From IMG/VR virus record IMGVR_UViG_3300022918_000016, positions 1-52,569 of that record: a stretch of 52,569 bases of DNA; one strand, 5' to 3'. The stretch is from a virus. Taxonomy: Duplodnaviria > Caudoviricetes. Shown one piece after another: positions 4,777-43,816 of the stretch (position 1 is the stretch's first letter; every line of letters starts with the position of its first letter). Below the pieces are notes generated by a model. It made no database searches, was not told the origin of the DNA, and worked only from the letters and a program-made list of their open reading frames with translations. The translations under genes were made by a program, and so were the position numbers.

Positions 4777-4959
4777 TTACTTATCTCTTAAATTTTTATT
4801 TATAATCCTCAGCATTTCAGTATCGTGATCGTGCTGCCTGCATCGTAATCGGTATTTTTTAGCAGCGTAAAATAATATTACAATAATAATCAGCCATAAT
4901 ATCACACCGCTGAATATCAGTAAACGCCAGTACCATTGTAGGTCGTTTAGGTTTGTCAT
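4777..4959 (-). CDS. Small membrane protein
   Basis: Single hydrophobic helix followed by a basic tail. Confidence 0.7.
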   Translation of the reverse strand: MTNLNDLQWYWRLLIFSGVILWLIIIVILFYAAKKYRLRCRQHDHDTEMLRIINKNLRDK

Positions 4960-4965
4960 AATTTA

Positions 4966-5136
4966 TTATTTTAAAATAACCTCTTTATCATTGTCTAAAA
5001 TTAACTCCTTGCATTTTCCGTAAACGATATAGACTTTACCGGGTATTAAATTAAGGTCTATCTGTTTTATAAATCTAAATTTAGAGCTGCCTTTGACTCT
5101 GAATTCATTTCCTTGTTCTAATTCTTTCGCTGTCAT
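4966..5136 (-). CDS. Small hypothetical protein (56 aa, MTAKELEQ...)
   Basis: Manual translation; fills the gap; typical AAATT-ATG start. Confidence 0.65.
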   Translation of the reverse strand: MTAKELEQGNEFRVKGSSKFRFIKQIDLNLIPGKVYIVYGKCKELILDNDKEVILK

Positions 5137-7969: not shown

Positions 7970-8215
7970 TTAAAAAGGTAAATGTGTAATTTTGTCTTTC
8001 GTAATCTCTTGTAACGAATTATATAAATCCTCTTTTGTGTTAAAAACACCTGTATCATTTATAGTTGCTACAGACCCTCCGTTAACAACGAATTCATAAG
8101 TGGTTCTTGAATAAGTTTCTGTTTGCTCAAATTTTACTTTATTTATAGGCAGGAAATAAAGTTCATTATTGTGCAGAAAAAACACAGTGTCTTTTGGTTT
8201 TCTTAAATTTTGCAT
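7970..8215 (-). CDS. Hypothetical protein, first gene of the leftward operon
   Basis: ORF directly downstream of a leftward promoter. Confidence 0.7.
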   Translation of the reverse strand: MQNLRKPKDTVFFLHNNELYFLPINKVKFEQTETYSRTTYEFVVNGGSVATINDTGVFNTKEDLYNSLQEITKDKITHLPF

Positions 8216-8238
8216 TTTTATAAATTATTTTGATACCG

Positions 8239-8302
8239 CAAATATAATACATTAATTTTAATGAAAAATATTTTTTTATTCAAAATGTTAGTTGTAGGTT
8301 TG
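8239..8302. promoter_or_regulatory. Divergent Bacteroidota-type promoters with a central palindrome
   Basis: TAtaTTTG on - (8246-8239), TAggTTTG on + (8295-8302), CATTAA-tt-TTAATG at 8250-8263. Confidence 0.75.
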
Positions 8303-8322
8303 CTGAACTAAAAATAGAAATT

Positions 8323-8538
8323 ATGACACCAACCGAAAAATTAATAATACTTAAAGAGTATGAGAACTTAGGCTTAGATACTGAGTTTGTAGAATCTATA
8401 ATGGATGACAGGGGTTTTATACCTGAACACGAATGGGAAGAATTTAATCCTTATTTGCATGAGTGGGATATGGAATGTTCTTTCGGTGTTACTAAATTCA
8501 GGCCAGTAAACATTTATCCGAAACTTAAATCTTTGTAA
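8323..8538 (+). CDS. Small acidic early protein
   Basis: First ORF after the rightward promoter; rich in Glu/Asp. Confidence 0.75.
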   Translation: MTPTEKLIILKEYENLGLDTEFVESIMDDRGFIPEHEWEEFNPYLHEWDMECSFGVTKFRPVNIYPKLKSL

Positions 8539-8541
8539 CCG

Positions 8542-8733
8542 ATGACACCAACTGAAAAAACCCAACTCCGCCACGCCATCGTAAAATCTCCCGGATTAAT
8601 CGATATGCTCAAAACAGCTATTAAAAACGATAATCAGTTAAATAAAACGAATGCTATCTGTGTTTTAGCTGTTCGCTCAGGTCTAAGTAAAGAGTTTGTA
8701 AGTGAAAATATTAATGAAATAATAGAGCTATGA
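8542..8733 (+). CDS. Hypothetical protein
   Basis: Tightly packed ORF; starts MTPTEK like the preceding gene. Confidence 0.7.
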   Translation: MTPTEKTQLRHAIVKSPGLIDMLKTAIKNDNQLNKTNAICVLAVRSGLSKEFVSENINEIIEL

Positions 8734-9029
8734 GTAATTTTAAAGTAGGGCAGAAAGTTGTTTGTGTTGAAAGACCGCCAAGAGATAATTTTGATGAATT
8801 CTATGGTCTTGTAGATCCTCTTTTGAATGATATTTATACAATCAGAGAATTAGATGGTATTTACATTAGATTAGAAGAAATAAAAAATCCTTTATTGCAA
8901 TATAGTGATGGTGTCAACGAATGTGCTTTTAAAGCGTCATATTTCCGCCCCTTAGACCATGCTTTCGCCGATGAAGTAGAGGCTATGATTAAAGAGCAGA
9001 TTAAACAGGATGAATTAATAAATATATAA
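8730..9029 (+). CDS. Hypothetical protein (FKVGQKVVC, SH3/KOW-like start)
   Basis: ATGA-coupled ORF. Confidence 0.75.
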   Translation: MSNFKVGQKVVCVERPPRDNFDEFYGLVDPLLNDIYTIRELDGIYIRLEEIKNPLLQYSDGVNECAFKASYFRPLDHAFADEVEAMIKEQIKQDELINI

Positions 9030-9031
9030 TT

Positions 9032-9544
9032 ATGACAAACCTAATAAAAGAATGGGCAATATCCTGCCACGAAGATACCAATCACAAGTATGATGGTAAA
9101 CCTTACGAATTGCATTTAAATTTAGTTGTTAGTGTTGCAAGAGAGTTTTTATACCTTGTACCTTTATCGGATGCAGACGCTGTTATACAGGCGTGCTGGT
9201 GTCACGATGTAATTGAGGATTGCCGAAAAACCTACAACGATGTTAAGGAAGCGGCAGGCGTTCAGGTAGCAGAAATAGTTTATGCGCTAACTAACGAAAA
9301 GGGCAAGAACAGAAAAGAGCGCGCTAATGATAAATATTACAAAGGCATAAGAGATACTCAATATGCTGCTTTTGTAAAAATATGCGATCGTATTGCTAAT
9401 ATTCAATATTCCGTGGCTACGAATAGCAGAATGCTTGATGTTTACAGAAAGGAATCAAGTAATTTTGAGCAGGAGTTATTTTCGCCCGTATATCAGGTTA
9501 TGTTTAATAGGATAGACTTTTTTCTGAAACATTATGCAATCTAA
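9032..9544 (+). CDS. HD-domain phosphohydrolase, RelA/SpoT (Mesh1/SAH)-like
   Basis: H....Y.GKPYELH, HDVIED, ALT, VKICDRIAN motifs. Confidence 0.85.
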   Translation: MTNLIKEWAISCHEDTNHKYDGKPYELHLNLVVSVAREFLYLVPLSDADAVIQACWCHDVIEDCRKTYNDVKEAAGVQVAEIVYALTNEKGKNRKERANDKYYKGIRDTQYAAFVKICDRIANIQYSVATNSRMLDVYRKESSNFEQELFSPVYQVMFNRIDFFLKHYAI

Positions 9545-10286
9545 CTCTATAACCAAACACGGCTTAGACCTCATTCTAAAATCCCCTAAGCAATACTGGT
9601 ATCATTACCTACGTGAGGGCAGGGAGGAATACGCACCATCATCCGCCACGGTTTTCGATATGGCTTTGCGCGCATCGGTTTTACATAAATATGAATTTAA
9701 TAAGCTGTATGTTCGGCGACCTAATTACGACCGCAGGAAAACACTTGAAAAACACGATGATGATTTACTCATTGCTGCATGTAAAAATAACGGACAGTTT
9801 CTATTACCGGCAGAAAAATACGATACGGTTATCGAAATGACAGCCGCTATTAAGGAACATAAAACCTGCAACATATTATTCAATTCAGGCAGTTCAGGAG
9901 AAAACACAGAATTTATGCATCCTGATAGCGAAGCGGTAATTTCTATAAAACCGCATTGGGTTTCAGATAACGGATTAATCGTGAATTTAACCAGCACAAC
10001 TGATATTTCAAAAACCGCTAAAGATGCAGTGTTATTTAACAGGCATCGTAAAGCAGCGATTTTAACCGACGTATTTCATTTGCCTGTAGTTTTTGTTATT
10101 GTTGAGGAAAAACCGCCTTACAACATCGAAATATCAGTTTTAGACAGCCGAAGCTTGCAGTTGGGGCGTGAGGAATATATAGCTGCCAGTAAAATATATT
10201 CTGAATGCCTTAGTTCCGGTAAATGGGGCGGCATGAGTGAAGAAATTAAAATAATAAGTTTACCTGAATGGGTATTTAATAAGTAG
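9534..10286 (+). CDS. RecE/exonuclease VIII-like (DUF3799-type) protein, catalytic motif degenerate
   Basis: LDLILKSP..Y, FVIVEEKPPY, GREEY...C..SGKW layout; IKPHW...IVNLTST at the PD...DLK position. Confidence 0.7.
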   Translation: MQSNSITKHGLDLILKSPKQYWYHYLREGREEYAPSSATVFDMALRASVLHKYEFNKLYVRRPNYDRRKTLEKHDDDLLIAACKNNGQFLLPAEKYDTVIEMTAAIKEHKTCNILFNSGSSGENTEFMHPDSEAVISIKPHWVSDNGLIVNLTSTTDISKTAKDAVLFNRHRKAAILTDVFHLPVVFVIVEEKPPYNIEISVLDSRSLQLGREEYIAASKIYSECLSSGKWGGMSEEIKIISLPEWVFNK

Positions 10287-10484
10287 TGTTACGAGAAAAG
10301 GATTTAAAGTAGGTTATTCATTGACTCAGAAATCCACATGCGTATTGGTATATAATGTAGAAGAAAGCAATTTTATAAGTATTATTGGGTGGATAAGTCC
10401 GTGGGCGGCTAAATTTACTATGGCCGGCTATTCTGATTGCGTTGGAATATGGCAGCCCAAAGGAACTAAACAAAACCGTAAGCC

Positions 10485-10880
10485 ATGAGCGAACACATCG
10501 AAACATTCAATTCCTTCATCGGCAAGCGTGACCGTGTAGCCGTAATCGGATCACGAGGTTTCAGCGATTATAAATTATTTGCTGATAAAATACACCATTT
10601 CACTAAAAACATTGAAAATATATGCTTCATAAGTGGTGGTTGTAAAACAGGTGCGGATAACTTAATTGAAAGGTACTGCAACGATAATAATTTACCAATA
10701 CTGATATTTTACCCTAACTATGCGGAATTTGGTAAATTAGCACCTTTGAAACGTAACCATCAGATAGTGGATAACTGCGATATGCTGATTGCGTTTTGGG
10801 ATGGCGTAAGCACAGGAACAAAATATACGTTGGATTTGGTGGATGAAAAATTAATACCTAATAGAATAGTAAAAATATGA
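10485..10880 (+). CDS. SLOG superfamily protein (YspA/DUF2493-like)
   Basis: AVIGSR, ISGG..GAD, PLKRN, IAFWDG.S.GT motifs. Confidence 0.85.
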   Translation: MSEHIETFNSFIGKRDRVAVIGSRGFSDYKLFADKIHHFTKNIENICFISGGCKTGADNLIERYCNDNNLPILIFYPNYAEFGKLAPLKRNHQIVDNCDMLIAFWDGVSTGTKYTLDLVDEKLIPNRIVKI

Positions 10881-10881
10881 A

Positions 10882-11193
10882 ATGAAACGAGATAAAAATG
10901 AGTATCAGGCTAAGTATATTTATTTAACTAAGTCTATAATACCTGATAATTTCGACATACATCATATAGACGGCAATAGAAATAATAATCTTATAGATAA
11001 TTTAGTTTGTCTGCCCGTAAAGTTGCATAGTGATTATCATAAGTATTTTATGAATGGAGATTTTGAGAAATTAGAACAAACTGAATTAAACATAACCTAT
11101 TGGGTTATATTCAGAAATTATTTATTAGGTAAGCTGCATTATTTTATAGACGGCTTCAGTTACGAAAACAATAATTTAAATCCGGCGGGATAA
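10882..11193 (+). CDS. HNH endonuclease
   Basis: IHHIDGNRNNN.IDNL...H..YH. Confidence 0.85.
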   Translation: MKRDKNEYQAKYIYLTKSIIPDNFDIHHIDGNRNNNLIDNLVCLPVKLHSDYHKYFMNGDFEKLEQTELNITYWVIFRNYLLGKLHYFIDGFSYENNNLNPAG

Positions 11194-11205
11194 CGCATAA
11201 AAATT

Positions 11206-11709
11206 ATGTCAGAAATAACAGTTACAGGCAGGGTTAAATTCATTGGAGAAATGGTAACCCGAGGAACATTTAGCAGTAGGGAAATTGTAGTAACTACAGA
11301 CGAGCAATACCCGCAACACATAAATATCCAATTTGCCCAGGATAAATGCGATTATCTCGATAAATATTCTATAGGTCAGCCTGTAGAAATAGCAGTAAAT
11401 TTACGTGGCCGCGAATGGGTCAACCCACAAGGCGAAACAAAATACTTCAATACCATTCAGGGGTGGAGGATAAAGGCAGGAGAAGGAGCTGCACCACAAC
11501 AACCAGCACCCGTATTCCCTGCTCCGTGGCCGAGTGCCGCGCCCGTAAAAACATATCAGCATACCGATGCGACCATTACATTAGACAGGTATTTAGCAAC
11601 GCTAGGGTGGACTTATGATGTTTTAGTAGCTAAAGGTAAAGGTATTTGGGTTGAAGCCACACCGGGCGTGCCTGCTGCTGAGGATGATAACGATGGATTG
11701 CCATTTTAA
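11206..11709 (+). CDS. Single-stranded DNA-binding protein (DUF3127-like OB fold)
   Basis: TDEQYPQ...NLRGREW...YFNTIQGWRI; acidic C-terminus DDNDGLPF. Confidence 0.85.
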   Translation: MSEITVTGRVKFIGEMVTRGTFSSREIVVTTDEQYPQHINIQFAQDKCDYLDKYSIGQPVEIAVNLRGREWVNPQGETKYFNTIQGWRIKAGEGAAPQQPAPVFPAPWPSAAPVKTYQHTDATITLDRYLATLGWTYDVLVAKGKGIWVEATPGVPAAEDDNDGLPF

Positions 11710-11782
11710 AATGGTAATTTTTTTAAATTTATATTTTTACCTTTCTAAATAAAAACATATCTTTATATAAAATAAATAATAT

Positions 11783-12277
11783 ATGAAGATATGTTTTAAA
11801 TGCAATTTAGAATTACCATTTAGTGATTTCTATAAACACGCACAAATGAAGGATGGCTACTTAGGTAAATGCAAAACATGTACCAAAAAAGACAGTTCTG
11901 TTAATGAAGCCAAAATAAGATCTACACCCGAGGGGCTTGAAAGAGACAGGCAAAGGCATCGTGATAAATATTTTAAGCTAAACTATCGAGAGAAGCAAAA
12001 AATTTGGGATAAAGATAAACCGTGGAAACAAAGTCCTATTTATAAAAGCCTACACAAACGGTTTAAAGTACCTAAAGGTTTTGAATTGCATCATTGGAAT
12101 TATGAAGATAAATATTTAGAAGATGTATTTTTAATGACTGTTTCAGAACACAGAAAATCTCACATGCATATTAAATTAGATTTAGAAAACAAAATATTTA
12201 AAACTGATACAGGCGAATTATTAAAAACAAAATCAGACCATTTACAATACTTAATTTCAAAGGGTATTAAATTTTAA
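11783..12277 (+). CDS. HNH endonuclease with N-terminal CxxC zinc finger
   Basis: CFKC...FY...DG....CKTC; ELHHWNY...EHRKSH. Confidence 0.75.
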
Positions 12278-12281
12278 AATT

Positions 12282-12971
12282 ATGTCAGAAAATAAACTAC
12301 CAAAAATTAATGACCTGTACAAAGATGTGCAGCTTGCTCAATCTAACGATGTATTAACCGCATTGCTTAATCAGCCTCCAAAACAGGAATGGGTAAAAAC
12401 CCATCCTTACATTGCTAATTACAAGTATCTGCCTATAGATAAGGTGGAGTTCCTGCTTAAAAAAATATTCAAGGCCTATAGAATTGAGGTTTTACGTGAG
12501 GGAACGGCCTTTAATGGTGTATACGTTATTGTTAGGGTTCATTACCAAAATCCGGTTACAGGCAATTGGGATTATCACGATGGTGTAGGAGCAAAGGAAC
12601 TACAGACCAAAAAAGGAGAATCCGCTGCTAATTTAGCGATGATAAATCCAGGCGCATTAGCAATGGCATTTCCTATAGCCAAAACAGTTGCTATAAAAGA
12701 TGCTTGTGATCATTTCGGGATGCTGTTCGGATCTGACCTTAACCGTAAGGACGTAATGAGTATCGGTGTAGATGAAAATCTGCAATCAAAAAATGCTATA
12801 GACGAAATAAACAAACTCGTTAAACAGCCTGTAACTGAAACGCACGATTTCGAAGTTATTCAGCCCGATATTGTTTCGCCTGTAAATAATTCGATTGAAG
12901 TTACTGAACCGCTGGATATTCCAGCCCCCGAACCATTGATGCCGGAATTACCAAACGATAAGGATTTTTAA
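12282..12971 (+). CDS. ssDNA-annealing recombinase (Rad52/Sak-like)
   Basis: YLPIDKVE..L..IF...DGVGA...AIKDA...FG.DLNRK; next to SSB and the RecE-like gene. Confidence 0.7.
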   Translation: MSENKLPKINDLYKDVQLAQSNDVLTALLNQPPKQEWVKTHPYIANYKYLPIDKVEFLLKKIFKAYRIEVLREGTAFNGVYVIVRVHYQNPVTGNWDYHDGVGAKELQTKKGESAANLAMINPGALAMAFPIAKTVAIKDACDHFGMLFGSDLNRKDVMSIGVDENLQSKNAIDEINKLVKQPVTETHDFEVIQPDIVSPVNNSIEVTEPLDIPAPEPLMPELPNDKDF

Positions 12972-12994
12972 AATATAATCACTATATTTACCCC

Positions 12995-13067
12995 GTCATA
13001 ATTTCTATCTAAAACCAGTTTACTGTATAGCTGCTAACATAGCCCTTATACATGAACTGGTTTTTTT
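12995..13067 (+). ncRNA. Candidate antisense sRNA 1 (5' seed GUCAUAAUUUCUAU + long terminator hairpin)
   Basis: TAtaTTTA box 12983-12990; seed complementary to 8314-8327; stem 13011-13064 plus U tract; no ORF. Confidence 0.5.
13011..13067 (+). terminator. Intrinsic terminator ending the rightward early operon
   Basis: AAAACCAGTTTA/TGAACTGGTTTT stem with inner stems, then T7. Confidence 0.8.
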
Positions 13068-13082
13068 ATTTCCATAAAATAC

Positions 13083-13114
13083 AAAACCCGACAACAATTC
13101 AATATGCCGGGCTT
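13083..13114 (-). terminator. Intrinsic terminator for leftward transcription
   Basis: Minus strand GCCCGGCA...TGTCGGGT followed by TTTGT. Confidence 0.65.
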
Positions 13115-13141
13115 CGAAACTAATTCCGTGTGGAATCAATA

Positions 13142-13366
13142 TTATTCTGCTTCTTTGAATTCGCAAACATATTCTTTCCCGGGCTTAAAAAATAATAATG
13201 CATCGGGATTTGTTATATGCATCTTTACAGAGGCATTTGGGGTATAAATGCTAAATGTTTTGTTTTCTTCCGAAGTATTTGTTACGGCAGAAAGATTAGC
13301 TTCTACATTGTTGTTTCCGTAATCTACAACAGAACCAACTTTAAATTTTGCTAAAAGTGTTTTCAT
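13142..13366 (-). CDS. Hypothetical phage protein with its own promoter (TAtaTTTG 13403-13396)
   Basis: AKFKV...ENKTF..YTP...I.NP....F.PGKEY pattern. Confidence 0.75.
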   Translation of the reverse strand: MKTLLAKFKVGSVVDYGNNNVEANLSAVTNTSEENKTFSIYTPNASVKMHITNPDALLFFKPGKEYVCEFKEAE

Positions 13367-13407
13367 TATTTGCTTAATTTTTTAAATGTTAGCTGCAAAT
13401 ATATGAA

Positions 13408-13932
13408 TTATATATTCGGATAAATAAACCCGTTTTCATTTATATATTTACCGGAATTTACCGTGTTCTGCAGTCCCTGCCAATTGTAACCGAAGGTTTT
13501 TTCAAAGTGCGGCATATCAGGAAACGATCGCCAGTCTCCGCCCCATACCCAACCAATGGACTTAAAATATTTTACTACTTCCATCCAATCGGCTATCCCG
13601 TCTTTGTCATTATCAGCCACAACACTCCATGATGCGGTTTCGAAAATCCCGTCGTTATTTTTATCTAAAAGCAACACAATGTCAAAAGCCAGCCCGTAAT
13701 TATGTATGGATTGTCCGGCTTTAGCATTCGTAACCTTATTACCTGGTTTAGTCCTTCCCTGAGCGTATAAGGCTGCTTGCTCTGTTAAACTCCTGTAGGT
13801 GTACGCAAAACGTAATCTAACGCCTTTTCCAAGTAGTTTATCGTTTACGTGCCTGTAAGCCTGTAAAACCTCATTGCGTACTTTAGGATGCATCTGCTGT
13901 ATTCGGTATATGGTTATTAAATCGTCTGCCAT
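13408..13932 (-). CDS. Endolysin, M15 (L-Ala-D-Glu) peptidase
   Basis: YRS..EQ..LYAQGRT, SIHNYGLAFD, WGGDW..F.D.PHFE. Confidence 0.92.
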   Translation of the reverse strand: MADDLITIYRIQQMHPKVRNEVLQAYRHVNDKLLGKGVRLRFAYTYRSLTEQAALYAQGRTKPGNKVTNAKAGQSIHNYGLAFDIVLLLDKNNDGIFETASWSVVADNDKDGIADWMEVVKYFKSIGWVWGGDWRSFPDMPHFEKTFGYNWQGLQNTVNSGKYINENGFIYPNI

Positions 13933-13937
13933 AATAT

Positions 13938-14309
13938 TTAATTTTTATCGTTTTTCTGATACTCCTTCAATTTATCATCCCGGTATTTATTGTAATGTAT
14001 TAAACAAACCCAAAACACAACTGCTGCAATAATCGCTATTTCAGGTCTAACATGTATTAATCCGTCTTTAAGCTGTTTCAGGTACGCCAGTATAATTACA
14101 AATACACTTAGCATTAAAGGAGGCACTGATAGCAAATATTTATTACTCATGAGCCATTCGTAGGGCTTTCGGTCTTTATGCCTTATACAGCGCATAAACA
14201 CGTACCAGTAACTGTATTTCATTCCGGACACGATGTAACTCATATAAACTATAAAAGTCATCATAAGTATAATCAATAATATGTTTGCAGCATCAATCAT
14301 GGTTTTCAT
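13938..14309 (-). CDS. Membrane protein (3 TM), holin candidate
   Basis: Three hydrophobic segments; adjacent to the endolysin. Confidence 0.65.
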   Translation of the reverse strand: MKTMIDAANILLIILMMTFIVYMSYIVSGMKYSYWYVFMRCIRHKDRKPYEWLMSNKYLLSVPPLMLSVFVIILAYLKQLKDGLIHVRPEIAIIAAVVFWVCLIHYNKYRDDKLKEYQKNDKN

Positions 14310-15655: not shown

Positions 15656-15918
15656 TGTTTTTTAGCTAAATCAGAAATAGTTTCGTCTTTTTTAGTACCG
15701 CCTGTTGAAGCTCCAAAAAAGTAAGATATAACGCTGCTGGTTGTAGAAACTATAGCAATTAGTATCTGATCGTTCGGCTTAGTATGCTGCAATAGGTTTA
15801 TGAAATAATAAGTAAATCCCAATAATATAACTATTAAAGCCAGTATAGGTTTAATGTGTTCACTTAGTGTTTTCATAGAGTAGTGATTTAAAATGCAGGA
15901 GTGTATGTCCTCCTGCAT
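15652..15918 (-). CDS. Two-TM holin-like protein (likely start MKTLSEH at 15876)
   Basis: Two TM helices, YFFGAS..KKDETI tail. Confidence 0.65.
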   Translation of the reverse strand: MQEDIHSCILNHYSMKTLSEHIKPILALIVILLGFTYYFINLLQHTKPNDQILIAIVSTTSSVISYFFGASTGGTKKDETISDLAKKQ

Positions 15919-15934
15919 TTACAAATATACTAAA

Positions 15935-20291: not shown

Positions 20292-21653
20292 TTAAGTTGT
20301 TGGTAGTGAAAATATAACTACGTTTGAAATTATCCCGTAAACAGGGTATGTTATTCTAAAATACCTGTATTGTATCGATGATGCCGGGGTAGCTACAATT
20401 AAAGGACTGCTGTTTCCTCGCGTGTTACGAATCCAGTTTATACCATCCGTTGATATTTCCGCGAAAAATCCTGCGCTTGGCGATGTTGATAACGTGAAAT
20501 CGTAGGTAAAATATAAACTGTAGGTATTTCCTATAGGGTTAAATTTCGGGTTATTTGTGCTTACTTGATTTAAATATATCGTTAATTCAGGTAACTGCAG
20601 AACATTAGAGCGTGTGCCTGTAATCGGATCGTAAACACTGTAATAAAAACCTCCGTTTATATGTCCCGGTACGCCAACGATATTTTCAGGAAACGAAGTA
20701 TTTGCAACGCTCATTTCATCCGTCCATGTTACGCCGTCCAAACTCCATTGGAACAATAAAAATTCAGGATCAAAATTTATTTGCTGGTGCGTATACTGCA
20801 CGACGTTTTCGTTTAGTGAATCTACAGCAGATAAAATTATCTCATATACTGGCAATGGTGGATCAGGTGGTATCGGTGGTACGTAATTAGGATTGTATAA
20901 ATCGAATGGATCGCGCAGTAATAAAACTTCGCTCTCTATAAAATTCTCCCTGCCTTCGGTGTCTGGCGTTTCAGGTGCTTCTTTTAAATCCGTTCCCTGT
21001 AAATCTGAATAAACATATTGATTTCGAAACATATCTTTAAAACGCTCGAAAACCTCAATATCTACAACCCCTGTTTGCCAGCGTTCGTATTTACTGATTT
21101 GGCTAACGCGGTTTGTTTCTTTACCGCTGCCTATCTGTTTATAATTAACAAGCGTTAAATCTGATTTTTTTTGCCTGAACCATATAAATAACTGCGTGGA
21201 TAGCATAGTATCTTCAAGGTTATTCCTGTAATCCCAACGTGAAGTATATTCTGCATTATCCTCAGATAAATAAAATGGTGTGCTATATATTGAGCCTGCT
21301 GCCTGCCTGAACTCGATGTAAACAGGCTGTAATCCGAAATCAAGCGATGTTATAGGTAAGAATGACCAGTCCACCTGTGGCAACCCTGTACGTGGATCGT
21401 TAAACGTTTGGATTATTTCAAAACACTCTGCCGGTATCTCGATTAATATATTGCCGCAAGCATCACGCAGCACCGCATCGTTAATTTCAAGGTTAATACC
21501 ATCGGGCGCATACGTGCGTTGAATGTATTTGTAATCTGAATTAGGTAATAGTTGCACGCCTTCAAAATTATAAATATCCATAAAGGGGCTGTTACGATAG
21601 TACATTGCCTCGTTAAATGTATTGTATAATGATATGAAAGTAGGTTGCTGCAT
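20292..21653 (-). CDS. Tail tip / baseplate protein with two C-terminal beta-sandwich-like repeats
   Basis: Pro linker, then SLDGVTW and STDGINW repeats. Confidence 0.65.
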   Translation of the reverse strand: MQQPTFISLYNTFNEAMYYRNSPFMDIYNFEGVQLLPNSDYKYIQRTYAPDGINLEINDAVLRDACGNILIEIPAECFEIIQTFNDPRTGLPQVDWSFLPITSLDFGLQPVYIEFRQAAGSIYSTPFYLSEDNAEYTSRWDYRNNLEDTMLSTQLFIWFRQKKSDLTLVNYKQIGSGKETNRVSQISKYERWQTGVVDIEVFERFKDMFRNQYVYSDLQGTDLKEAPETPDTEGRENFIESEVLLLRDPFDLYNPNYVPPIPPDPPLPVYEIILSAVDSLNENVVQYTHQQINFDPEFLLFQWSLDGVTWTDEMSVANTSFPENIVGVPGHINGGFYYSVYDPITGTRSNVLQLPELTIYLNQVSTNNPKFNPIGNTYSLYFTYDFTLSTSPSAGFFAEISTDGINWIRNTRGNSSPLIVATPASSIQYRYFRITYPVYGIISNVVIFSLPTT

Positions 21654-21730
21654 TTCGAGTGTAAATATACCGAATAAAAATAAAGTAAAAAAATAAATGT
21701 AATTATGCGTGCGTAATTAAAATATAGTAG

Positions 21731-21738
21731 TATATTTG
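21731..21738 (+). promoter_or_regulatory. Bacteroidota -7 promoter element for island 1
   Basis: TAtaTTTG about 20 nt upstream of ATG 21760. Confidence 0.75.
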
Positions 21739-21759
21739 TGAAAAATAAAACTAAATATT

Positions 21760-27459: not shown

Positions 27460-27511
27460 ATAATTTTTCACAAAACCCTACTTCAATTAAAATAAATAAT
27501 TATATTTGCAA

Positions 27512-27605
27512 TGCAGACCGCTACCTGCACAAACTCATAAGTCTTGAATGACTAACAGAGAAACCTCATAGAATGCTGTAGCGGCTTTTATGGGGTTTTC
27601 TTTTT
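27512..27605 (+). ncRNA. Structured 5' leader / attenuator, kissing-loop motif copy 2
   Basis: TGCAG-[ACCGCTAC]-CTGCA hairpin; terminator-like hairpin with GTAGCGG in the loop plus U tract; promoter TAtaTTTG 27501-27508. Confidence 0.7.
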
Positions 27606-41683: not shown

Positions 41684-42009
41684 GGTATTAATTTTAATGC
41701 TTCCAGTAATCCTGCTTCTAAAGCTTGTTCGTAGGTTTCGTATTCTGAACTAAAAGAATATACGTTTCCTTTAAAATAAACTGATGGAAAATATTTCGTA
41801 TCAGGATATTCATCGTAAGTAAACATTGCATTTACCAAGGTTTTATGAACCTCCCTAAGCCATTTTTGTAGTAATGACTGTGTGCAGGTATTGTAAAGTT
41901 TTACCCTCCACTCTACAGCAGAATCCTGTTTAGTATAGCTATTAAAATATTCAAATCCTTTCTCTTTAGCTAACACAGCTGTTTGATAGGTTATTAATTG
42001 TTCTGTCAT
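41680..42009 (-). CDS. Hypothetical phage protein
   Basis: TA.LAKEKGF...TQSLLQKWLRE.H...TYEQALEAGL pattern. Confidence 0.75.
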   Translation of the reverse strand: MTEQLITYQTAVLAKEKGFEYFNSYTKQDSAVEWRVKLYNTCTQSLLQKWLREVHKTLVNAMFTYDEYPDTKYFPSVYFKGNVYSFSSEYETYEQALEAGLLEALKLIP

Positions 42010-42291: not shown

Positions 42292-42316
42292 GGGTTTAAT
42301 ATTTTTCACAAATATA

Positions 42317-43816
42317 CTAACTTATTTCAAACATCTGCCTATGATTCACATACATATATCGAATAAATTCAGTAACCGCATCTTCTATATCGTCGTGACC
42401 GTCCTCTGCCTTACCAATTTTAGGGTATGCCTGTAAATGTTTAACGGCCTGATTGTGCTGAGGCTGCGTTACAGGGTTAGCTCTCACAATATAAATCTTA
42501 CTCATAAACTGCGCAAACGAGGTTATGCGGTGATCTTTATTACCCGATGAATAATAGCCCTCTACATGCACACCCATGTTCTGCAGCAACGTAACATACA
42601 CGCTGCCCTGGTTGTTCGTTTCCATCTTGTTTATGATACTGCCATGCTCCTGTATTTTTTGCTTCAACAGCGGCGATGTAACCGCGCTGCCCTCCTGCGT
42701 GTAAATAGTATCGAACCAATACATTTTCCCGGCATTGACCTCAAAGAACGGCGTGGCAAAATAATCAGAACCGGTGTCGGCTACATCGGTAAAACTTAAA
42801 CGTATTTCGTCGCCCCGGCGCGGCGGTAATGCATCGACGAAATTTAATTCCGGATACAGTAACCCGTCAACCGATTGTGCTATCTGATTGTACTGGATGT
42901 TATATGCTACATCGGAAATCGGTTTATTATCATCCAACAACCCGGCGCGCTGGTCAGACAATACCTTACGGGATAAACGTTTCGGATCAAGCAGTCCATC
43001 GATATAAAATGCCCGTAATTCAGGAGGGTTAATATTCTGGTAAATATCCTCAGCAGGTAAACACAAATGCCTTACATCATCTTTAAGTACCTTAAGCGCA
43101 TGGCCTGCGGTGTCTTTATTTGACAAACGTTGCATGAATAAGATATACGGCGTTTTACGTTTATCTTTTTTACGGGATTGCAAGGCTTTGAACCCCTCGA
43201 TGCATTCTGCGGCTTCTGCAGGGCTTTGAGCCGTTGAGTAGTCCATTGCATCATCATCGGTAATTAAATCAACGTGCTTACCTGTTTTTGATTTAGAGTT
43301 TGTAGTTACGGAATATCGTATGCCGCCTTTTTCGGATTCGTAGTATGTTTTAGCCGACACGTCCCGGCGAACGCGTACAGTCGGGAAGTAAAGCCTGTAC
43401 TTATCAGATTTTATAATATCAAGCGAATCCTTAGCAAACCCGCTGGCATTTGATGCCGATATGGTGTTACTCATAATAGATTTAGAATCATCGATGCACC
43501 ATACCCACGCCGGTACTGCCCGAGATAGTATCGTTGACTTAGTTGTACCTGGCGGCATGTTGCCTACAAGGTTTTTTTTAATATCATCTAAAATAGTTGG
43601 ATACCATTTTCCTGCCTGTATATGTGGCGGTCTTTCAAAAACATACTTGTCAATTACTAACTGTATCTCATCGCAGAAGTATTCGATATTAAAATTGTCC
43701 TCATAAGGATTATTTATTATAACATCCCAAAATTCTTTTAAAAAGTAAAAAAGCCGTCGCTTACATAGCTCGGCTTTTACTTCATGTATTTTTGGTAGTA
43801 AAATCTGTTTAGTCAT
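42317..43816 (-). CDS. terL: Terminase large subunit
   Basis: NMPPGTTKS (Walker A), LITDD (Walker B), MQRL, TDVAD.GSDY, HDDIED nuclease motifs. Confidence 0.92.
   Translation of the reverse strand: MTKQILLPKIHEVKAELCKRRLFYFLKEFWDVIINNPYEDNFNIEYFCDEIQLVIDKYVFERPPHIQAGKWYPTILDDIKKNLVGNMPPGTTKSTILSRAVPAWVWCIDDSKSIMSNTISASNASGFAKDSLDIIKSDKYRLYFPTVRVRRDVSAKTYYESEKGGIRYSVTTNSKSKTGKHVDLITDDDAMDYSTAQSPAEAAECIEGFKALQSRKKDKRKTPYILFMQRLSNKDTAGHALKVLKDDVRHLCLPAEDIYQNINPPELRAFYIDGLLDPKRLSRKVLSDQRAGLLDDNKPISDVAYNIQYNQIAQSVDGLLYPELNFVDALPPRRGDEIRLSFTDVADTGSDYFATPFFEVNAGKMYWFDTIYTQEGSAVTSPLLKQKIQEHGSIINKMETNNQGSVYVTLLQNMGVHVEGYYSSGNKDHRITSFAQFMSKIYIVRANPVTQPQHNQAVKHLQAYPKIGKAEDGHDDIEDAVTEFIRYMYVNHRQMFEIS

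Follow-up and report, generated by a model that had tools for sequence, protein, structure and literature searches.

The DNA analysed here, referred to below as the window, is the whole of an IMG/VR virus record of 52,569 b that is estimated to be 96% complete. Positions 12972-13141 form the convergent junction of two operons. The rightward genes (8323-12971), which include a phosphohydrolase, an exonuclease, an HNH protein, an SSB and an endonuclease VII-like protein, constitute a replication/recombination operon with its last stop codon at 12971. The next genes lie on the other strand, from 13142; the operon of these leftward (lysis/late) genes closes with a peptidase M15 endolysin-like gene. 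The product of the first rightward gene is acidic (15 D+E vs 7 K+R in 71 aa), as had been stated in a preliminary description of this DNA, and has no PHROG family, no Pfam family and no relative among viral contigs. For the 229-aa product of the last rightward gene, one distant homologue was found among genome contigs, on a contig of a Saprospiraceae MAG (L035) from which the junction is absent. Megablast of positions 8000-14000 against phage records gave no match, ARAGORN detected no tRNA and no tmRNA, and Rfam returned nothing at gathering score for the whole window and only two chance-level matches (E about 7) for 12850-13250. The features under discussion are the following:

8295-8302, plus strand: predicted −7 box TAGGTTTG of the rightward-operon promoter, intergenic, 28 nt before the ATG, kept in the relatives L010 and L011
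8307, plus strand: predicted start of the rightward operon, giving a leader of 16 nt, from a box at −12 to −5 as described in PMC9723704
8314-8327, plus strand: proposed target ATAGAAATTATGAC, consisting of leader, ATG and 2 nt of gene 8323
8323-8538, plus strand: first rightward gene, 71 aa, acidic
12282-12971, plus strand: last rightward gene, 229 aa, PHROG 15333, unassigned function
12983-12990, plus strand: −7-like box TATATTTA with A for the consensus G, a putative promoter element
12995-13008, plus strand: 14-mer GTCATAATTTCTAT, complementary to 8314-8327, its first base being the predicted start site
12996-13004, plus strand: conserved core TCATAATTT, the complement of the consensus start context AAATTATGA
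13011-13064, plus strand: long hairpin, predicted intrinsic terminator of the rightward operon
13061-13067, plus strand: T7 run of that terminator
13082-13140, minus strand: predicted terminator of the leftward operon plus a 9-bp hairpin (two hairpins; −25 kcal/mol, z −3.83)

The terminator hairpin of the preliminary description is well founded. It begins 40 nt past the stop codon of the rightward operon, spans 54 nt with a folding energy of −22.2 kcal/mol (z −6.49; none of 200 shuffled sequences was equally stable) and runs into the T7 stretch, so that a stable stem-loop with a U-run lies downstream of the last stop. The structure is kept in relatives: compared with L011, 2 of the 20 pairs carry compensatory double changes and 1 a one-sided change, and L010 has a different 9-bp hairpin with a T-run at the same site. 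Fold, T-run and compensatory pairs together identify the long hairpin as the intrinsic terminator of the rightward operon, an activity that we infer from these features. A simple terminator scan did not list 13011-13064 because it requires a loop of 3-8 nt and the stem is interrupted; a simple sigma-70/terminator scan is in any case uninformative for this host type. Like other intrinsic terminators of convergent junctions, this one is a stable hairpin with a T-run just past the stop, paired with a terminator on the opposite strand; it differs from them in its unusually long stem (20 pairs, 54 nt) and in the conserved promoter-like box before the hairpin. Given its position in a convergent junction, the long hairpin is therefore needed as the rightward terminator, whatever its other roles. 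Among viral and metagenome contigs, 20-mers from the hairpin matched only the contig of L002.

Two further observations concern termination around this locus. Directly after the SSB gene, inside the rightward 'operon', lies another terminator-like hairpin with a T7 run (11696-11724, plus strand; hairpin + T7 11696-11717), and the rightward genes may thus form two transcription units. On the minus strand, 55 of the 67 columns of the terminator block 13076-13141 are invariant in four genomes, and the 3' UTR 13076-13147 is better conserved than the flanking coding sequence; the last leftward gene itself differs between relatives. The minus-strand terminator with its 9-bp hairpin could represent a conserved 3' UTR element or a processed RNA. 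A 28-mer from this terminator matched only the three known relatives among viral contigs, and a 24-mer had no match among genome contigs. Between the two terminators, a 24-nt insertion is present in L002 (about 2345-2370), where it contains the perfect palindrome GTCGAATTCGAC, and in L010; it is absent from the window and from L011.

Start regions in the window, counted over 91 crude gene calls, are A/T-rich with the consensus AAATT-ATG-A (A at −5 in 58/91, A at −3 in 56/91, T at −2 in 51/91 and A at +4 in 51/91). SD-like motifs occur in only 4 of the 91, in agreement with the earlier assumption of a host that does not use SD sequences. The motif TAnnTTTG is described as the −7 box of the Bacteroidota sigmaA, at position −12 to −5 (PMC9723704; PMC7366714), and TATATTTG is found in 10 copies in the window, 8 of them intergenic and the other 2 at most 30 nt upstream of a start. 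We read the A/T-rich starts, the scarcity of SD motifs and the TATATTTG boxes as the expression signals of a Bacteroidota host. Elsewhere in the window, two operons of opposite orientation have the same promoter segment of 20 nt, TAGTATATTTGTGAAAAATA, at their head (21728-21747, plus strand, and 42300-42319, minus strand), and −7 boxes at 15918-15929 and 21653-21669, both on the minus strand, end only 3 and 8 nt before called ATGs, which points to leaderless or nearly leaderless mRNAs or to wrongly called starts.

The start regions are also strikingly alike. The sequence AAATTATGA, equal to the consensus start context, has 8 copies in the window where 1.95 are expected, 5 of the 8 at called gene starts, and 12 of the 91 genes have an identical run of at least 14 nt through the ATG in common with another gene. 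A 17-nt identical start region, for example, is found at genes on opposite strands (4947-4963, minus, and 9028-9044, plus), and several further start twins of 14-22 nt exist in the window.

Upstream of the rightward terminator, the box followed by 4 nt that had been pointed out previously is indeed present: TATATTTA at 12983-12990, then CCCC, then the 14-mer. With the box at −12 to −5, as described in PMC9723704, +1 is predicted at G12995, the first base of the 14-mer, and hence where the preliminary description had expected transcription to begin. The junction is present in four related genomes, L002, L010, L011 and L003, with only three independent lineages plus L003 represented. L002 (the same as L008 and L009) has 90% aa identity to the window in the flanking gene, and its contig starts downstream of the operon head; both operon ends are present in L010 and L011, which share synteny with the window and 76% aa identity in the exonuclease. 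The box matches the sigmaA motif at 7 of 8 positions in the window, L002 and L010, where it reads TATATTTA, and completely in L011 and L003, where it reads TATATTTG; L011 has a perfect extended box TAGTATATTTG, and its tail box belongs to the 4 TATATTTG copies of a 16.7 kb locus, which are all intergenic. The predicted +1 base is G, G, A and A in the four genomes that can be aligned here, the window included.

Conservation extends from the box into the tail and stops there. In the four-way alignment, 18 of 22 columns of the block 12983-13004 are invariant, including all 9 of the core, compared with 2 of 10 in the adjacent spacer 13005-13014; as the spacer varies freely, the conservation is local and does not reflect a recent sweep. 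The conserved architecture thus begins with a −7 box and 4 nt, continues with a purine and TCATAATTT, and leads through a variable spacer to a hairpin with its T-run; it stays intact where unrelated genes have been inserted ahead of it. The 5' tail including the core is unpaired in all four folds, which makes it a conserved single-stranded seed by structure. In L003 (73% aa identity in the flanking gene) the homologous junction is otherwise unalignable, and it carries TATATTTG and, after 4 nt, a G, followed by a tail of 12 nt and by a hairpin with a T-run. The block is found once in the window, with up to 3 mismatches allowed. Its motif occurs in 24 stretches among viral contigs: the 3 known relatives, 17 coding stretches, most of which carry one conserved protein-coding motif, and 4 other AT-rich sites. 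In one of these 4 (L016), which shows no tblastx similarity to the window, the block likewise lies between a stop codon, 4 nt away, and a terminator. Among the 97 distinct sites listed for a relaxed form of the motif in viral contigs, 8 have a downstream terminator, of which 4 are the family itself, and the opposite-direction control gave 1 of 97 among the sites listed; these counts among the matches listed do not point to a clear wider class.

The explanation that we favour, with about even confidence, is that the locus is an operon terminator combined with a plausible short RNA that shares this terminator and has a generic anti-start 5' end, and not a dedicated regulator of gene 8323. The conserved promoter-like unit probably yields a short RNA sharing the operon terminator. 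In this scheme the Bacteroidota sigmaA-type −7 box, 4 nt, a purine and TCATAATTT would set the start of a 73-nt RNA, from 12995 to 13067, which would end at the rightward operon's terminator and have an unpaired 5' tail of about 16 nt. Only the 9-nt core is kept, and if either this RNA or the operon 3' UTR, in which the sequence is equally present, pairs at all, it would do so as a generic anti-start seed that reaches several AAAUUAUGA-type starts. The sRNA of the preliminary description therefore survives in part: the layout of box, predicted start, unpaired 5' tail and terminator is kept in four relatives, but the dedicated pairing with 8323 is not. Some features speak against a promoter of its own for the RNA, namely that the box in the window ends in A and not in G, that 12 of the 20 copies of TATATTTA in the window lie inside genes, and that no TTTG is found in the window 19-21 nt upstream of the box, where a −33 element would be placed. 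The −33 TTTG motif is reported as not identifiable in Flavobacterium johnsoniae (PMC7366714), and TATATTTA is also the box ahead of the leftward operon at 21669.

By its layout, the candidate resembles the 3' UTR-derived sRNAs with their own start that are described in PMC7366714, in that its start is predicted past the last stop, it shares the terminator and it would be about 73 nt long. It differs from these in being a predicted element, with a start read from a 7-of-8 box.

The main rival to the terminator-sharing short RNA, which we consider possible and less probable, is that the junction is no more than a terminator with a 3' UTR, where box and core are kept only as part of a linker for module exchange and no separate RNA is made. 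In its favour, the flanking genes differ on both sides among relatives and the junction is kept. Extra ORFs of 94 aa in L002 and 106 aa in L010, which are unrelated to each other (BLASTP E = 2.1), sit upstream of the block and never between box and hairpin. The 94-aa ORF (L002 1914-2244 vs window 12966-12975) lies between the homologue of the 229-aa gene and the block, the 106-aa ORF of L010 occupies the same site, and the extra segment of L002 is bracketed by a 10-nt direct repeat TTTTAAAATA, as expected for a short-homology deletion or insertion. The neighbouring minus-strand terminator block, conserved even better than the box and tail, also fits a linker. A precedent exists in the PeSLs of T4-type phages, described as composite motifs of a conserved promoter and a stem-loop that mediate indels where ORFans were inserted or replaced (PMC2839356; PMC4122927). 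The junction shares with them the promoter and stem-loop at sites of indel or replacement, but it is single-copy in the window where PeSLs flank ORFans in many copies, no gene follows the promoter, and the box is of the sigmaA −7 and not of the sigma70 type. Two further findings weigh against a mere linker: the conservation is local, with the spacer next to the core nearly free to vary, and L003 keeps the layout of box, tail and hairpin despite its unalignable sequence.

Gene replacement is also seen at the head of the rightward operon. Promoter and leader through the ATG (window 8266-8325; about 6812-6902 in L010 and L011) form a conserved cassette behind which the gene is replaced, and the first gene is a different one in L010, L011 and the L002-type phage. 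For the latter, an 816-nt Logan contig (run X2) covers 8229-8325 with 9 differences and then continues into a different first gene.

The preliminary description had centred on the 14-mer, and its reading of the sequence was accurate. Between 12995-13008 and 8314-8327 the reverse complementarity is perfect, and it is limited to 14 nt, since the flanking bases match on neither side; the shorter matches reported at other starts (11 nt at 42009, 10 nt at 5136 and 4959) were reproduced. At a predicted −17.6 kcal/mol, the duplex of the tail with the start of gene 8323 outranks those with all other starts among the 91 (next comes start 42009 with −15.7), and none of 300 shuffled tails attains this value. 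The shuffled tail is nevertheless the wrong null, because the tail on the minus strand reads AAATTATGA, the consensus start context. When real start regions were reverse-complemented and used as anti-start control seeds, 4 of 91 bound another gene's start at least as well, and this result, together with the start twins of 12 in 91 genes, makes a 14-nt match ordinary for start-like sequence in this genome. Genome-wide, 41 maximal inverted exact matches of at least 14 nt were counted against 14.8 ± 3.6 in 30 Markov-1 simulations. Whether the 14-mer exceeds chance accordingly depends on the null: it does against random sequence, but neither genome-wide nor against start-like sequence.

Comparison with the relatives also went against a covariation of seed and target. 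Relative to the window, L002 is identical at 97 of 102 positions over 12966-13067, with the whole 14-mer included. In L010 and L011, promoter and leader are kept at the operon head and the target reads TATGAAATTATGAA, which differs from that of the window at the three positions −12 to −10 and in the second codon; the tail seeds, ATCATAATTTTTAT and ATCATAATTTATTT, have changed elsewhere. Complementarity thereby drops from 14 nt to 9 nt (AAATTATGA / TCATAATTT), and none of the changes is compensated. Both sites retain the 9-nt core, yet it is invariant and so provides evidence neither way on covariation. The head start still ranks high as a partner of the tail, first of 32 starts in L010 (−10.1 kcal/mol) and second of 31 in L011 (−8.4), which may reflect a weak conserved interaction, but these ranks stem from the shared invariant 9-mer and are not independent support. 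That the tail matches the start of gene 8323 over 14 nt is thus probably a coincidence, confined to this lineage, of start sequences that are alike.

A stronger role for the tail than our favoured explanation assigns to it is unlikely. In this reading the phage would produce, from a separate −7 promoter, an RNA of about 73 nt with R-UCAUAAUUU, its first ten bases, acting as a universal anti-start seed that pairs with the AAAUUAUGA-type starts of some phage mRNAs (8323, 42009, 4959, 5136 and 28445) and possibly of host mRNAs, thereby tuning translation in a phylum that does not rely on SD sequences. By its proposed action, the element resembles GibS of Bacteroides thetaiotaomicron, in the account of which (PMC7366714) a single-stranded, conserved, AU-rich 5' seed pairs across start codons in the same non-SD type of host phylum. 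GibS is described there with an extended seed of 30-50 nt and validated targets, however, compared with a conserved core of 9 nt on a phage here, and the window element has no sequence relation to it (no Rfam match).

The original proposal, a dedicated trans-acting antisense sRNA with a 5' end that occludes the start codon of gene 8323, and more weakly other Met-Thr starts, so as to shut off early genes, is unlikely. It has in its favour the strength and rank of the 14-nt duplex, the match beginning exactly at the predicted +1, the tail that is unpaired in all folds and the precedent of a 5' single-stranded part pairing with start regions described for GibS. Against it stand the different positions at which target and seed have changed in L010 and L011, leaving 9 uncompensated nt, the target gene that is not conserved, the anti-start controls that do equally well, and the start twins found among the genes.

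Action in cis, in which the anti-start sequence of the 3' UTR would pair with the 5' end of its own mRNA (8314-8327) or with internal starts, is highly improbable: the plus-strand transcript from the predicted start at 8307 to the terminator contains both partners, and in the described icaR case of Staphylococcus aureus (PMC3868564) a sequence of the 3' UTR is likewise the complement of the region where translation of its own mRNA starts, but the partners here are a predicted pair 4.7 kb apart in a polycistron, with an anti-start and not an anti-SD sequence, the hairpin and T7 at 11696-11717 may split the operon, and the relatives carry the same uncompensated changes. Equally improbable is a minus-strand reading of the core, as the relic of a start or the start of a mini-gene. 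Despite the excess of AAATTATGA and its frequency at called starts, the ATG there opens only ATG ACG GGG TAA, as had been noted; the frame has 3 codons in the window, L002 and L010 and 6 codons in L011. On that strand the core follows two terminators and has no box upstream, and the stop codon of the frame is no more than the −7 box in complement.

Other elements of this kind were observed in the same phages. At 27501-27605 on the plus strand of the window, a consensus TATATTTG is followed after about 50 nt by a strong hairpin and T-run in the 159-nt gap before gene 27619, and the segment 27513-27612 folds with −29.9 kcal/mol (z −4.85); it may be a second and cleaner candidate for a small RNA or a leader/attenuator. 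In L010 (12296, minus strand) and L011 (12120, minus strand), an intergenic TATATTTG with a 63-nt tail, a hairpin and a T-run is kept in both genomes.

The locus illustrates a pitfall, in that start regions are so alike in this genome that 14-nt 'antisense' matches to start codons arise without selection. The part worth testing is the conserved unit of box, tail and terminator, and not the 14-mer. We found no described sRNA of a Bacteroidota phage in a non-exhaustive search of the literature. Should the short RNA exist, it may be an early candidate for a base-pairing regulator from a phage of the Bacteroidota and would provide a test case for start-codon occlusion without a Shine-Dalgarno sequence.
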